Part shown: one piece after another, positions 39,149 to 43,533 of the stretch
Layout: every line of letters starts with the position of its first letter
How positions within the stretch are numbered: position 1 is the first letter of the stretch
NCBI GenBank assembly: GCA_937868205.1
Contig: CALMMC010000049.1
Span: 423 to 64,422, forward strand
Direction: 5' to 3'
DNA length: 64,000 bases
Source of the DNA: an uncultured bacterium
Lineage (GTDB): Bacteria; Acidobacteriota; Aminicenantia; Aminicenantales; UBA4085
Position numbers and translations under genes: made by a program
Notes under the pieces: model-generated
The model's input: only the letters and a program-made list of their open reading frames with translations
What the model was told of the DNA's origin: nothing
Database searches by the model: none

Positions 39149-39625
39149 ATGAACGGGCCGGAACAAACGACCGAACCGACCCGCCGCCGACGGCGCGGAC
39201 CGGCCGTCCTTCTTTTCGCCCTGGCCGGGGCGGCCGCCGGGCTGGGCGGATTCACTTTCTTTTTCGCCCAGGGCGCGTCCTACCTCAAGGACGATCCGAA
39301 AATCTGCATGAACTGCCACATCATGCGGAGCCATTTCGACGACTGGAACCGGGCCTCCCACAAGGCCGTCGCCGTCTGCAACGACTGCCATACGCCGCCC
39401 GGCTTCCTCGGCCACTGGACGGTCAAGGGAATCAACGGCTTTAATCACGGGAAGGCGTTCACGACCGGCGACTTCCACGAGCCGATCCGCATCCGGCCGT
39501 TGAACAAGCGGGTCCTGCTGGACAACTGCCGGCGCTGCCACGAGCCGGTCATCGAGCGGATGCGGACGAACAGCCGGGGCGAGGAAGCCGACTGCAGCCG
39601 CTGCCACCGGAACGCCGGACACTGA
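39149..39625 (+). CDS. nrfH: Cytochrome c nitrite reductase small subunit NrfH (NapC/NirT tetraheme family)
   Basis: N-terminal TM plus four CxxCH motifs (CMNCH, CNDCH, CRRCH, CSRCH). Confidence 0.85.
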   Translation: MNGPEQTTEPTRRRRRGPAVLLFALAGAAAGLGGFTFFFAQGASYLKDDPKICMNCHIMRSHFDDWNRASHKAVAVCNDCHTPPGFLGHWTVKGINGFNHGKAFTTGDFHEPIRIRPLNKRVLLDNCRRCHEPVIERMRTNSRGEEADCSRCHRNAGH

Positions 39626-39641
39626 CGACGAAGGAGATCGG

Positions 39642-40952
39642 ATGATGGAAACGAAGCGTCCGCGGAAGAACGCGCTTTTGTACGGGGCGGCTTTCCTGGC
39701 AACGGCCGCGGTCATCGCCGGCGTCCTCGCCCTTCTCTTCAACGTCCGAACCCGGCGGGAGGAGGCGTACCGCTATCCCTTGAAGGTCGTCGAAATCAAG
39801 GACGGCGAGATCGATCCGGCCGTCTGGGGGAAAAACTTTCCCCTCGAGTACGATACGTTCGTCCGGACGCGGGAGAATTACGGCCGGACGTTCCACGGCG
39901 GATCGGAGCGCTTCAGCCGGATCGACGAGATCCCCGCGGCCAAGCGGCTCTGGGCGGGCTATGCCTTCAGCGTCGAGTACAATGAGGAGCGGGGTCACTT
40001 CTTCGCCCTGACCGACCAGAAGATGACCCGCCGGGTCCGGGAATTCGATCAGCCCGGAGCCTGCGCCAACTGCCACTCGGGCAAGGCTCCGGCCCTGATC
40101 CGGGAGATGGGCTGGGAGGCATTCAATAAAACGCCGTACAAAGAGCTCTCCCCCAAACTCCGCCACGGCTCGGTCTGCGCCGACTGCCACGACCCCAAGA
40201 CAATGGAGCTGGTCATCACCCGCCCGGCTTTCAAGAAAGCCATGGCCGCGGCCGGCGTCGACTTGGCCAAGGCGACCCGCCAGGACATGCGGACCTACGT
40301 CTGCGCCCAGTGCCACGTCGAATACTACTTTTACGGGGAGAACAAGGAACTGACTTTCCCCTGGGCCAAGGGCCGGACGATCGAGGCGATCGAAGCCTGC
40401 TACGATGAAAACGGCCACGTCGACTGGGTCAACGCGGAAACCGGGGCGGCCATGCTCAAGGTCCAGCATCCCGAGTTCGAAACGTGGGGCACCGGGCTCC
40501 ACGCCAAGTCCGGGGTGGCCTGCGCCGACTGCCACATGCCGTATGTCCGGGCCGGAAGCGTGAAGGTTTCCGACCACTGGATCCGCAGCCCCCTGACGAA
40601 CATCGCCGCCGCCTGCCAAGCCTGCCATCCCCGGCCCGAGGAGGAATTAAAATCCCGGGTCAAGGACATCCAGGACAAGACGGCGGGCCTTCTGCGGAAG
40701 ACGGAAACGGCCTTGCTTGCGGCCATGGACGCGATCATCAAGGCCAAGGCGGCCGGCGTTCCGGACGAGCGCTTGTCCGCTTCCCGGGCTCTGATCCGGC
40801 GCGGCCAGCTGCGCTGGGATTTCGTCTTTTCCGAGAACGGGACAGGCTTTCACAGCCCCCAAGAGGCCGCCCGCGTCCTGGCCGAGGCGATCGATTTCGC
40901 CCGGCAGGCGGAATTGGCCGCCGCCCTGCTCGCTCCGGCCGGAATCCGCTGA
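39642..40952 (+). CDS. nrfA: Ammonia-forming pentaheme cytochrome c nitrite reductase NrfA (CxxCH active-site variant)
   Basis: Five CxxCH motifs (CANCH, CADCH, CAQCH, CADCH, CQACH). The first heme is CxxCH rather than the CxxCK of canonical NrfA. Overall NrfA-like length and motif order. Confidence 0.85.
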   Translation: MMETKRPRKNALLYGAAFLATAAVIAGVLALLFNVRTRREEAYRYPLKVVEIKDGEIDPAVWGKNFPLEYDTFVRTRENYGRTFHGGSERFSRIDEIPAAKRLWAGYAFSVEYNEERGHFFALTDQKMTRRVREFDQPGACANCHSGKAPALIREMGWEAFNKTPYKELSPKLRHGSVCADCHDPKTMELVITRPAFKKAMAAAGVDLAKATRQDMRTYVCAQCHVEYYFYGENKELTFPWAKGRTIEAIEACYDENGHVDWVNAETGAAMLKVQHPEFETWGTGLHAKSGVACADCHMPYVRAGSVKVSDHWIRSPLTNIAAACQACHPRPEEELKSRVKDIQDKTAGLLRKTETALLAAMDAIIKAKAAGVPDERLSASRALIRRGQLRWDFVFSENGTGFHSPQEAARVLAEAIDFARQAELAAALLAPAGIR

Positions 40953-41143
40953 CGATCCGCGCCGCGGCTCGGGGCAAGACCCGCCCGCCTCGTTCTTTCC
41001 GGCCAGGGGGCGAAGGATTTTCAGTCCTAACGACGGGCGTCGTTTTCGCGATCATTAAGCTGAATCCGCACGATTTTCCGATTCCTATAAAGAAAAGGAT
41101 TTAAAGGAAATACAGGGAACTAAAAAAAAATATTAAATTTCTC

Positions 41144-41171
41144 TTGACACGCGTAACCTTTGCGTTATTAT
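41144..41171 (+). promoter_or_regulatory. Near-consensus sigma70 promoter (TTGACA, 16-nt spacer, TATTAT) followed by a TATGAC-N9-GTCATA palindrome (41181-41201)
   Basis: ttgaca at 41144-41149 and tattat at 41166-41171, inside an AT-rich roughly 200-bp block. The palindrome immediately downstream of the -10 is operator-like. Confidence 0.6.
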
Positions 41172-41212
41172 ATATAACGTTTATGACACTATTTGAGTCA
41201 TAGGGGTTAACA

Positions 41213-41281
41213 ATGAGCAATTTCAAAATGTTGGTTTTAGTGGTCGTCGTGATCTTTCTTTCGATGCTTGTGATCGGTTGA
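41213..41281 (+). CDS. 22-codon hydrophobic small ORF (MSNFKMLVLVVVVIFLSMLVIG)
   Basis: AGGGG Shine-Dalgarno 8 nt upstream of the ATG. It lies downstream of the strong promoter, and the peptide is a single TM-length hydrophobic helix. Confidence 0.35.
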   Translation: MSNFKMLVLVVVVIFLSMLVIG

Positions 41282-41303
41282 GTCCCTCCGAGGAAACAGG
41301 AAC

Positions 41304-41777
41304 ATGAAAAGGAGACTTCCCATGACCCCGGCAAGCAAAATCGACGAATTCGAGCGGACGTACCGCGGCGTCTATTCCCGGTTCGTCATCGTTTTTCTCG
41401 TTTTCTCCGCGGCTTGGCTGGTCCGTTTCATCGTCCGGACCATCGGCACGCTCCCCGAATGGCTGGACATCGGTTTCGCGGTGATCCTCATCCTGACCCT
41501 CCCCGCCCAGTTTTACAGCGTCGTCCGCTTGAGCGCGCTTCGCAAGCGCGGCCAAGCCGACGCGGAGCTGGGCGTCCTGTTCACGGATGAGAGGATTCAA
41601 GCCCACGGCAAGGCCGCCTGGATGTACGGATTCATCGCCATGGCCTCCGTCCTCGCCGTCCTCGGCGCCATTTCCGTCTTCGCCGACCTCAAGGACACGA
41701 ACGCCGTCATCTTCACGGCCCTCTGGGCCGGCTTCGGAGCATACCACTTGTCCTTCGTCCTCATGGAAAGGCGCTGA
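41304..41777 (+). CDS. DUF2178-like small membrane protein
   Basis: A 157-aa protein with 3-4 TM segments, immediately upstream of and co-oriented with an XRE regulator, the typical DUF2178/YozG pairing. Confidence 0.5.
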   Translation: MKRRLPMTPASKIDEFERTYRGVYSRFVIVFLVFSAAWLVRFIVRTIGTLPEWLDIGFAVILILTLPAQFYSVVRLSALRKRGQADAELGVLFTDERIQAHGKAAWMYGFIAMASVLAVLGAISVFADLKDTNAVIFTALWAGFGAYHLSFVLMERR

Positions 41778-41778
41778 C

Positions 41779-42003
41779 GTGGGCGGCGAGGAGCTCCGCA
41801 ACACGATCCGCGTCCAGCGGGCGATCAAGGACTGGACCCAGGAGGAGCTGGCCCGCCGGGTCGGCGTCACCCGGAAAACGATCAATACCATCGAAAACGC
41901 CGTTTTCGTCCCCTCCACCGTCCTGGCCCTGAAAATCGCCCGGGCTTTCGGAGTGAAGGTCGAGGACGTTTTCCAGCTGGCCGACGCGCCGCCCGAATCC
42001 TGA
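41779..42003 (+). CDS. XRE-family (Cro/C1-type) HTH transcriptional regulator, YozG-like
   Basis: HTH LRNTIRVQRAIKDWTQEELARRVGVTRKTINTIENAVFVPSTVLALKIARAFGVKVEDVF. The likely start is the GTG at 41779, right after the upstream stop. Confidence 0.75.
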   Translation: MGGEELRNTIRVQRAIKDWTQEELARRVGVTRKTINTIENAVFVPSTVLALKIARAFGVKVEDVFQLADAPPES

Positions 42004-42220
42004 GGCCCGGGAACCGAAAATCCAGGCTCGAGGCTGAGGCCGCAGACCGAACACCTCCGTGATCAAACAGCCGGAGCGGGAGCGGAGCGCGCCGTCGGCG
42101 GCTCATCCGGCCGCATCGGGGACGCGCCGAGCGAGCCGGCTCTCCCCAAAACGAAGAACGATCCCCGGCCGCTGAACTCAAGGGCCTCGAATCGGCGCCC
42201 GAGGCCTTGCCGGCGATTCC

Positions 42221-42249
42221 TTGACACAATCCCCCGCCGGCGATACGAT
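42221..42249 (+). promoter_or_regulatory. Sigma70-like promoter (TTGACA, 17 nt, TACGAT) for the C1 peptidase gene
   Basis: ttgaca at 42221-42226 and tacgat at 42244-42249, about 50 nt upstream of the start codon. Confidence 0.5.
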
Positions 42250-42297
42250 CTTTTTCCTCCGATGCCTTTTTTAATTCCACCCGCAACGAGGTGCCGC

Positions 42298-43533
42298 ATG
42301 TTCAGAAAAAAAACCATCCTCGGCCTGCTGGCCGCGTCGCTGCTTCTCGCCGCTTCCGCCGCCGCTCAGGACAAGCCGAAAGATAAAGGGATTTTCATCG
42401 AGCCCAAGAATCCCTTCTGGGAGGAAATCGCCAGGACGACCGGAGAATTCGGAAAGGCCCGGCCGGCCCCTCCCCGCCGGACGTTCATGGTCGACCTGGC
42501 CGGATTCGCCGTCCCGAAAAGCTTGGACGGCTTCAAGACGGCTTGGCATAATCCGCCGGTCTCCCAGGGGAACACGAACACCTGCTGGAGCTTCGCCACG
42601 ACCGCCTTCTTCGAATCCGAGATCTACCGGATCCACGGAAAGAAAGTCCGGCTCTCGGAGATGTTCACGGTCTACGCCGAATACCTGGAGCGGACGAAGC
42701 GGTTCATCCGCGAGCGGGGGGATTCCTACGTGGCCGAGGGATCCGAGGGCAACGCCGTCACCCGGAATTGGAAGATTTACGGCTGCATGCCCTGGGAGGC
42801 CTTCTCCGGGCTGAAGCCGGGCCAAAAATTCCATGATCATTCCAAGCTCATCGAGGAAGTCAAGGCCTACCTCGACCATGTCAAGACCGCCGGCGCCTGG
42901 AACGAGGCCGCCGCCCTCGAGACGGTCCGGGCCATTCTCGGCGCCCACATGGGCACCCCGCCGGAGAAGTTCACGGTCGAGGGACGGGAATACACGCCCC
43001 GGACCTACCTGCGGGACTGCCTGAAGATCAATCCCGACGATTACGTCGACGTTGTGTCCTACCTGCAGCAGCCCTTCGGCCCGAACGTCGAGTACGAAGT
43101 GCCGGACAACTGGTGGCACAGCAAGGATTACGTGAACGTCCCCCTCGACACCTTCATGAAGATCCTCAAGAAGGGCCTGGCCGCCGGCTTCACGATGAGC
43201 ATCGGCGGGGACATCTCCGAGCCGGGCAAGAACGCGGAGAAAAAAGTCCACATGATCCCGACGTTCGACATCCCCGCGGAATTCATCGACGACAACGCCC
43301 GGCAGTACCGCTTCGGCAACGGGACGACGACCGACGACCACGGCATCCACCTCATCGGATACAAGGAGGACGGGGGGCGGCTCTGGTTCCTGGCCAAGGA
43401 CTCCGGATCGAGCGCCTTCAACTTCGATCCCAAGGGCTATTACTTTCTGACCGAGGAGTACCTCAAGCTGAAGATCATGGATTTCATGGTTCACAAGAGC
43501 GTCCTCGAGGGCCTCGTGGAGGGGAGCCGCTGA
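42298..43533 (+). CDS. Papain-family cysteine peptidase C1B (aminopeptidase C / bleomycin hydrolase-like), secreted
   Basis: Catalytic QGNTNTCWSFAT (Gln/Cys) and DDHGIHLIGY (His); signal peptide after MFRKKTIL. Confidence 0.8.
   Translation: MFRKKTILGLLAASLLLAASAAAQDKPKDKGIFIEPKNPFWEEIARTTGEFGKARPAPPRRTFMVDLAGFAVPKSLDGFKTAWHNPPVSQGNTNTCWSFATTAFFESEIYRIHGKKVRLSEMFTVYAEYLERTKRFIRERGDSYVAEGSEGNAVTRNWKIYGCMPWEAFSGLKPGQKFHDHSKLIEEVKAYLDHVKTAGAWNEAAALETVRAILGAHMGTPPEKFTVEGREYTPRTYLRDCLKINPDDYVDVVSYLQQPFGPNVEYEVPDNWWHSKDYVNVPLDTFMKILKKGLAAGFTMSIGGDISEPGKNAEKKVHMIPTFDIPAEFIDDNARQYRFGNGTTTDDHGIHLIGYKEDGGRLWFLAKDSGSSAFNFDPKGYYFLTEEYLKLKIMDFMVHKSVLEGLVEGSR

Follow-up and report, generated by a model that had tools for sequence, protein, structure and literature searches.

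The 64,000-nucleotide stretch of contig CALMMC010000049.1 from an uncultured acidobacterium of the Aminicenantales (hereafter the window) contains a compact locus in which an AT-rich promoter block precedes three open reading frames (ORFs) on the forward strand, coding for a hydrophobic peptide of 22 amino acids (aa), a 151-aa membrane protein with four helices and a 74-aa Cro/C1-type regulator of the XRE family with a helix-turn-helix (HTH) domain (Table 1). A single transcription unit comprising all three cistrons is the best explanation of the data, and both the promoter and the operon are very probably real. On balance, we favor the interpretation that the operon encodes an autorepressed membrane-sensor/repressor module similar to CylR1/CylR2 of Enterococcus faecalis, with the single-helix peptide as an accessory component. 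A preliminary description of this DNA had pictured a compact regulatory or toxin-like module that was possibly acquired horizontally. A compact, self-contained regulatory operon of three cistrons is what we find, and neither a toxin cassette nor a recent acquisition is borne out.

The window was compared with 22 further distinct loci found through protein searches and contig look-ups (23 loci including the window). The sources are wetland, sediment and digester metagenomes, an Aminicenantes metagenome-assembled genome (MAG), Acidobacteriota MAGs and one Eubacteriales (Bacillota) MAG. The membrane proteins of the 22 loci are 20-69% identical to the window protein, with 84-89% for the near-copy pair L006 and L008. 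In every locus reaching far enough, a small XRE gene lies 3' of the membrane-protein gene, separated from it or overlapping it by no more than 4 nucleotides (nt). Anchored on the first half-site of an operator-like dyad, the 23 upstream regions align without gaps and share the same order of elements, namely an A-tract, TTGACA, 3-4 nt and the dyad GTAAC-N6-GTTAY (termed O1), whose right half-site overlaps the -10 element. This layout persists even though the identity of the membrane protein drops to 20-30%.

The promoter had been correctly recognized in the preliminary description and is conserved. TTGACA and TATTAT, separated by 16 nt, match the consensus at 11 of 12 positions, and a scan of 2.1 kb (positions 40500-42600) returned three promoter-like sites compared with 0.3 expected from shuffled sequences. 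Judged by spacing only, transcription is predicted to start at about 41177-41179. Between clades, the A-tract is more conserved than the DNA farther upstream (identity of 0.41 vs 0.26), and it may act as an UP element, which it resembles in sequence. The AT-rich block reported earlier is likewise confirmed, with a GC content of 0.28-0.36 across 41050-41250 compared with about 0.62-0.66 in the flanks and the genes. AT-richness is confined to the block of promoter and small ORF, and the same block is AT-rich in every host. In L006 and L008, the -35 boxes are weakened (TTGATA, TAGATA), an acidic residue lies in the middle of the micropeptide and the membrane proteins are altered at otherwise invariant residues (W to R, YH to DP). 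These two loci may be decaying copies or poor-quality assemblies.

O1 is the sole conserved dyad of the upstream region: across 17 loci, its half-sites reach a complementarity of 0.84-0.85, and the runner-up reaches 0.64. In a half-site profile over the 23 loci, O1 (offset 0) scores 8.96 of 10, and in several loci it forms a near-perfect palindrome of 16 base pairs (bp), for example GTAACCTATAGGTTAT in L007. Ungapped DNA identity between clades amounts to 0.70 over the -35 element and O1, 0.53 over offsets +41 to +60 and 0.26 in the flanks. This conserved dyad makes an autoregulatory XRE operator at the promoter very likely, as the preliminary description had proposed, but places it at GTAAC-N6-GTTAY between the -35 and -10 elements and not at the palindrome TATGAC-N9-GTCATA that had been put forward. 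From its conservation and position, O1 is probably the operator of the co-encoded XRE protein.

While O1 is solid as a site, two candidate sites downstream of it (O2 and O3) are tentative. At offsets 21-36, the sequence ATAAC-N6-GAYAC occurs in the window, L001, L006 (with the same version in L008) and L032, and thus in four of five clade versions; L022 reads ATAAC-N6-GACTC. Over all clades, the profile has a weak peak at an offset of about 21 (4.30 of 10). A further peak at offset 42 reaches 6.83 of 10, mostly from its right half (4.30 of 5), and a GTTAC, GTTAT or GTAAC half-site is found free of indels at offset 53 in 22 of 23 loci, with L030 as the exception. The O3-like site overlaps the Shine-Dalgarno region of the small ORF. 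The offsets 0, 21 and 42 are spaced two helical turns apart. A candidate RNA element in the leader was also considered and ruled out: RNAalifold detected 0 conserved pairs among 21 leaders, the single-sequence folds of the window and L001 leaders did not exceed shuffles in stability (z-scores of +0.64 and +1.26), and the only match in an Rfam covariance scan of 40900-42300 was at chance level (E 8.5) and located inside the membrane-protein gene. With RNA structure in the leader neither conserved nor unusually stable, the constraint acts on DNA.

The XRE protein was correctly identified as a Cro/C1-type regulator and matches HTH_3 (PF01381) over residues 13-63 with 48.2 bits (cut-off 23). Its GTG start is adjacent to the stop of the membrane-protein gene, as described previously, with one nucleotide between the TGA and the GTG; homologues carry ATG in place of GTG and have the same N-terminus (MGG...). 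Across clades, the XRE proteins are 57-92% identical to that of the window, and the helix 2-3 stretch DWTQEELARRVGVTRKTVNTIENG is nearly invariant. Such a near-invariant recognition region fits an invariant operator. The closest solved structure is 9k3w, an uncharacterized 65-aa "PbsX family" regulator (E 1.3e-12). CylR2 (1utx) is matched with an E-value of 8.8e-8 and 41% identity to the window protein, and the protein resembles CylR2 in its HTH-only size of 74 aa, in significant sequence similarity and in its coupling to a gene for a polytopic membrane protein. It consists of the HTH domain only, with no TPR domain of the kind expected for RRNPP-type quorum sensing.

The membrane protein had been described as a multi-transmembrane protein, and this is upheld. 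AlphaFold2 (30 sequences) predicts four long helices and a short helix at residues 81-87 with a mean predicted local distance difference test (pLDDT) score of 87.9; a Foldseek search against the PDB returned generic helical bundles only and no significant fold match. An exhaustive profile search yielded 261 clusters at 50% identity, almost all of 140-157 aa. ATG 41322 is the start in all homologues, and the NCBI annotation has the 151-aa form on 66 contigs. The JGI gene call comprises 157 aa and starts at 41304, six codons upstream (41304-41321). The true start is most likely ATG 41322 and not 41304. The earlier label "DUF2178-like" could not be sustained, as neither the window protein (E<=1) nor three relatives (E<=10) gave a match to this family, and DUF2178 is absent among the 25 most often matched of the 49 Pfam families found with 30 members. 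Ten distant family members gave no Pfam match. Weak matches to DUF6442 (PF20040) were obtained for 28 of the 30 members (best E 7.7e-6), with 12.9 bits and an E-value of 0.14 for the window protein (cut-off 25) and 25.4 bits for P0006. Profile positions 15-66 cover the two C-terminal helices together with the D-E motif before them, whereas the family described here is about 50 aa longer and has two extra N-terminal helices. This suggests, at the level of sequence, a distant relative of DUF6442 rather than a clear member. To our knowledge, DUF6442 is an uncharacterized family of bacterial membrane proteins. Based on the sequence and the distribution of positive charges, the N-terminus (IExFDRKRR), the loop between helices 2 and 3 (DPEL..L.DE...H..AWK) and the C-terminus are predicted to be cytoplasmic, and the conserved helix 2-3 loop would be the obvious candidate for a docking surface.

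The best characterized system of comparable architecture is the cytolysin regulator of E. faecalis. CylR2 is an HTH-only repressor of the cytolysin promoter and works together with the membrane protein CylR1 (PMC3709268; PMC5454873), which relays the signal of the peptide CylLS'' on a route independent of phosphorylation (PMC3709268; PMC5454873; bioRxiv 10.1101/2024.08.13.607848). In the cyl locus (L027 in our comparison), cylR1 (94 aa) is immediately followed by cylR2, with the same gene order and coupling as in the window. Both systems combine a small HTH-only XRE repressor encoded directly 3' of a gene for a small polytopic membrane protein with an inverted repeat in an AT-rich promoter, and neither includes a kinase or phosphorelay; for the window protein, the repressor activity is presumed. 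The membrane protein may thus work like CylR1, by analogy. The systems differ in that CylR1 has 94 aa and three predicted helices compared with 151 aa and four helices here, without detectable homology; in that the window locus has no lanthipeptide cluster, its sole visible target being its own operon; and in the extra micropeptide cistron and the Acidobacteriota rather than Bacillota host. The intergenic region between cylLL and cylR1 (positions 1135-1151 of L027, NZ_CP124896) contains ATAACATA-A-TATGTTAC, that is ATAAC-N7-GTTAC with O1-like half-sites, and also holds the palindrome TTGTCAAGTG-T-CACTTGACAA.

A second precedent is provided by operons of YoaS (DUF2975) and YozG (Cro/C1 HTH), whose AT-rich upstream regions carry inverted repeats that have been read as autoregulatory operators (bioRxiv 10.64898/2026.09.15.751765). 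Here, too, a membrane-protein gene is followed by a small Cro/C1 HTH gene and preceded by an AT-rich region with inverted repeats. However, the window protein has no DUF2975 match, the YoaS-YozG repeats are diverse in sequence whereas a single dyad and its spacing are near-invariant across phyla in the present family, and the description of YoaS-YozG mentions no micropeptide, which is present in the window. Given the CylR1/CylR2 and YoaS-YozG precedents, the general architecture is already known. A third comparison concerns the arrangement of sites. Lambdoid Cro/CI repressors bind the multipartite operators OR1-OR3, which are phased dyads overlapping the promoter. The window likewise combines a repressor of the Cro/C1 fold with candidate phased sites at offsets 0, 21 and 42. 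In contrast to the lambdoid case, O1 is the only good dyad in the window locus, a divergent promoter and a genetic switch are missing, and the XRE protein lacks a C-terminal oligomerization domain.

The small ORF at the 5' end of the operon was correctly described as preceded by a Shine-Dalgarno sequence and as encoding a single hydrophobic helix, MSNFKMLVLVVVVIFLSMLVIG, with a grand average of hydropathy (GRAVY) of 2.33. The JGI records contain no gene call for it, and the peptide matched no family in Pfam, NCBIfam, PADLOC or PHROGs. Five distinct versions of a hydrophobic ORF of 19-22 codons occupy this position in the clade of the window: MSNFKMLVLVVVVIFLSMLVIG in the window, MAKIMLLILGFIMVCLLILVIG in L001, MAKKIVFIISVFLMIISILIF in L005, MAKKIVFIISIFLAIISILMF in L022 and MNKLKILVSAIVEIALAMLTIG in L006 (with the same version in L008). 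A distant clade, in which the membrane protein is 27% identical to that of the window, also has the ORF (MKILILAFFLLILVILIIS in L028 and MTKVLILALILLFFAVLIIL in L035, of which L036 is a near-copy). Differences at codon positions 1, 2 and 3 number 10, 5 and 17 between the window and L001; 2, 1 and 5 between L005 and L022 (four synonymous and three conservative changes); and 7, 2 and 13 between L028 and L035, where seven codons are synonymous and the replacements are nearly all hydrophobic for hydrophobic. The second codon position is best conserved, which is a coding-like pattern, and its strong conservation suggests that the hydrophobic helix itself is under selection. In L035, the ORF uses GC-rich codons behind a strong Shine-Dalgarno sequence (GAGGAGG), so that hydrophobicity is not a mere by-product of AT-rich DNA. 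Three further contigs carry the identical small ORF in a comparison within the population. On these codon patterns, translation of the small ORF is likely. Short single-helix peptides encoded with, or regulated by, their partner are known from MgrB (for PhoQ) and KdpF (of kdpFABC), the latter being the first cistron of its operon. The peptide resembles them in being a short single helix and, as with KdpF, in being encoded by the first cistron, and has no sequence relationship with either.

In five loci (L018-L020, L033 and L032), non-hydrophobic ORFs of 11-18 codons, for example MKLKGYKEKTL, are located just 5' of the membrane-protein gene. They start at a conserved TATGA, mostly lack a Shine-Dalgarno sequence and end in a TGA that overlaps the main ATG (ATGA). 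A conserved upstream ORF beginning at the TATGA motif was considered and rejected owing to inconsistent frames and lengths and the lack of a Shine-Dalgarno sequence in most cases; ORFs ending in this way may be a coincidence of fixed spacing.

Taken together, these features slightly favor the following mechanism. A strong promoter of the sigma-70 type would drive the three cistrons, and a dimer of the XRE protein would bind GTAAC-N6-GTTAY in the promoter spacer and exclude RNA polymerase, so that the operon represses itself. The half-sites farther downstream, at distances of 21 and 42 bp, face the same side of the DNA helix and might serve cooperative binding or act as a roadblock. The membrane protein, whose translational coupling to the repressor would keep the two in a fixed proportion, might gate the DNA binding of the repressor upon a membrane or envelope signal, as is thought for CylR1. 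We give control of the repressor by the membrane protein an even chance, guided by the analogy with CylR1. In clades that have it, the micropeptide would insert into the membrane, where the four-helix protein would be its most likely target, with the peptide serving as subunit, ligand or feedback modulator. Such an action of the peptide on the membrane protein is plausible but falls somewhat short of an even chance.

Several observations weigh against this mechanism. How the signal passes from CylR1 to CylR2 is itself still unsolved (PMC3709268; PMC5454873). Membership of the membrane protein in the CylR1 family was considered and rejected: a comparison of a profile of 16 family sequences with CylR1 in hhalign gave a probability of 0.13% (E 0.46), and CylR1 itself matches no Pfam family. 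Without homology to CylR1, the analogy is one of architecture and of the XRE partner only. A search of the 64-kb window for O1-type sites found no copy besides O1, so that self-regulation is the only output apparent from the window. O2 and O3 are only half-conserved. The small ORF is lacking in most other clades, and in L032, whose membrane protein is 62% identical, it is replaced by an unrelated stretch of 35 nt. The ORF is thus not essential to the module. Moreover, between the window and L006 the small ORF has evolved faster than its flanks, with 11 non-synonymous and three synonymous codon changes; the 46-nt spacer 3' of it differs at two positions in the same comparison. The replacement stretch of L032 (about 205-240) contains the inverted repeat ATTCAACA...TGTTGAAT.

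Among the alternatives, the small ORF could be merely a translated leader that tunes translation of the membrane-protein gene or brings the mRNA to the membrane, with a functionless peptide as its product. Its location about 40 nt 5' of the membrane-protein gene and its fast evolution, with length and hydrophobicity kept, would agree with such a role, as would the unrelated short ORFs of the five loci named above, whose ends overlap the main start codon in ATGA. However, leader translation would find no conserved or stable RNA structure to remodel, the membrane-protein gene has a good Shine-Dalgarno sequence of its own (AGGAG), and the second codon positions of the small ORF are strongly conserved. 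We therefore consider a functionless leader peptide improbable.

A toxin-antitoxin-like pair, in which the membrane protein or the micropeptide is a membrane toxin and the XRE protein an autoregulating antitoxin comparable to HipB, HigA or MqsA, has a similarly slim chance. Type II systems typically autoregulate through a palindrome in their promoter. The XRE protein matches antitoxin models of NCBIfam and also HipB structures, but all model scores are far under the cut-offs (32.2 vs 79 bits for HipB, 31.1 vs 71.65 for Y4mF and 21.8 vs 47.7 for HigA), and the protein consists of the HTH domain with no extra region for binding a toxin. Toxin-antitoxin genes adjoin homologous modules in two unrelated contexts, with BrnT/BrnA pairs in L002-L004 (about 920-1445 in L002) and a PIN/RHH pair in L033 (339-1015). 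The membrane protein and the peptide, in turn, remained unmatched in PADLOC and PHROG scans, and within its lineage the locus is syntenic and of native composition. Viral contigs contained 84 exact matches to the operator pattern, none of them linked to module genes and consistent with chance, and protein relatives of the module were not found on them either. The earlier "toxin-like" reading is accordingly replaced by that of a regulatory operon.

The palindrome TATGAC-N9-GTCATA at the transcription start, proposed in the preliminary description as the operator, is indeed present in the window. Located at about +5 to +25, this perfect 6+6 inverted repeat can be extended to arms of 13 nt with 77% complementarity. 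Yet such a repeat is expected by chance in an AT-rich block: one or more perfect inverted repeats of 6 bp separated by 3-12 nt turned up in 47% of the dinucleotide-shuffled versions of 41100-41300, and the palindrome by itself thus carries no weight. It is absent or altered in L001, L005, L022 and L032, where the right arm is not conserved, and the dyad scan across loci gave no signal at this position, although the recognition helix of the XRE protein is invariant. The arms pair in the minimum-energy fold of the window leader, and no pairs are conserved in the leader alignment. That this palindrome, rather than O1, is the operator is very unlikely.

Equally little speaks for a released micropeptide that acts as a pheromone or antimicrobial, with the membrane protein as sensor or immunity factor and the XRE protein as switch. 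The CylR1/CylR2 sensor answers the hydrophobic peptide CylLS'', and here a peptide gene is part of the same operon. However, no exporter, modification enzyme or leader-cleavage motif is encoded in the operon or in the homologous loci with listed gene calls, the peptide is a hydrophobic helix without charge that is neither amphipathic nor cationic, the Acidobacteriota hosts are expected to have an outer membrane, and most clades lack the peptide. This makes a secreted-peptide circuit highly doubtful.

Least credible is the earlier suggestion that the 22-codon ORF codes for a type I toxin or for some other toxic peptide that stands on its own: with about 19-22 aa and a GRAVY of 2.3 it is similar in size and hydrophobicity to the Ibs peptides of Ibs/Sib systems, which have 18-19 aa, but it matches no family, opens an operon controlled by a repressible promoter, has neither a conserved leader RNA structure nor, in a sequence-level scan of the minus strand over 40500-42600, any promoter-like site for an antisense RNA, and is absent in most clades and dispensable in the close relative L032, where the module persists.

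Returning to the proposed autorepressed membrane-sensor/repressor module, its origin can be judged from composition and gene order. The GC content of the window is 0.62 overall, and the genes for the membrane protein (0.62) and the XRE protein (0.65) are both host-like. The order nrfA, module and C1-like peptidase gene is common to the window and related contigs; in L001, nrfA and the module are separated by an inserted GH172 gene, and L005 displays the peptidase side. Given host-like gene composition and shared synteny, the module is not a recent insertion, and the horizontal acquisition considered in the preliminary description is not supported for this locus. The near-identical promoters in Acidobacteriota and in a Bacillota MAG suggest, from sequence, that the whole module was transferred between lineages long ago.

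Upstream of the module, an nrfH-like ORF (39149-39625) with multiple CXXCH motifs is followed by the gene for NrfA, the cytochrome c552 nitrite reductase (Pfam 4e-139). The nrfH-like/nrfA pair spans 39149-40952 and lies directly 5' of the module; nrfA is also located 5' of the module in L001, L024 and L025. A short hairpin at 41029-41044, followed by TTTT, may terminate the nrf unit. The downstream neighbor at 42221-43533 is a C1-like peptidase gene (Peptidase_C1_2, E 3.4e-8) that adjoins the module in the window, L001 and L005. It has its own promoter (TTGACA-17-TACGAT, 42221-42249), where no O1-like site is present. The start of the 423-aa peptidase ORF as listed is probably later, at MFRKK..., and the JGI product has 411 aa.

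Table 1. Features of the three-cistron locus (positions within the window; all on the forward strand).
Feature	Position	Strand	Remarks
A/T-tract, UP-element-like	41121..41143	+	A-run at this position in nearly all 17 aligned loci
-35 element, TTGACA	41144..41149	+	from promoter scan; exact in 20 of 23 distinct loci
Candidate operator O1, GTAAC-N6-GTTAT	41153..41168	+	in the promoter spacer; 3-nt overlap with the -10 element
-10 element, TATTAT	41166..41171	+	from promoter scan; TATAWW at equal offset in other loci
O2-like imperfect dyad, ATAAC-N6-GACAC	41174..41189	+	21 bp 3' of O1; spans the predicted start; clade-specific
Palindrome TATGAC-N9-GTCATA	41182..41202	+	TATGAC at 41182-41187, GTCATA at 41197-41202
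O3-like site	41195..41211	+	right half GTTAAC at 41206-41211, at an offset of exactly 53 nt relative to the first O1 base
Small ORF, 22 aa, MSNFKMLVLVVVVIFLSMLVIG	41213..41281	+	hydrophobic helix with short polar N-terminus; AGGGG at 41202-41206
Membrane protein, 151 aa	41322..41777	+	Shine-Dalgarno AGGAG at 41310-41314
XRE HTH regulator, 74 aa	41779..42003	+	GTG start one base past the stop of the membrane-protein gene

The locus illustrates that an island of AT-rich sequence within a GC-rich genome need not be foreign DNA and can instead be a cis-regulatory block under constraint. What it adds to the known architecture is a membrane partner from an unannotated family, a strongly conserved operator geometry, an unannotated micropeptide gene and a corrected gene start. 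Small membrane proteins are very commonly paired with tiny XRE repressors, and the mechanism of control is unsolved even for the cytolysin regulator. With an operator and promoter that are invariant across phyla, strict translational coupling and a candidate peptide partner in some clades, the family offers a compact model in which this mechanism can be tested. It is unlikely, though conceivable, that all three components form one circuit, in which a transmembrane peptide of about 20 aa is the ligand or feedback modulator of a four-helix sensor that gates a CylR2-like repressor without phosphorylation. If true, such a circuit would extend the CylR1/CylR2 mechanism beyond Bacillota and lanthipeptides and would provide a minimal system for solving it.

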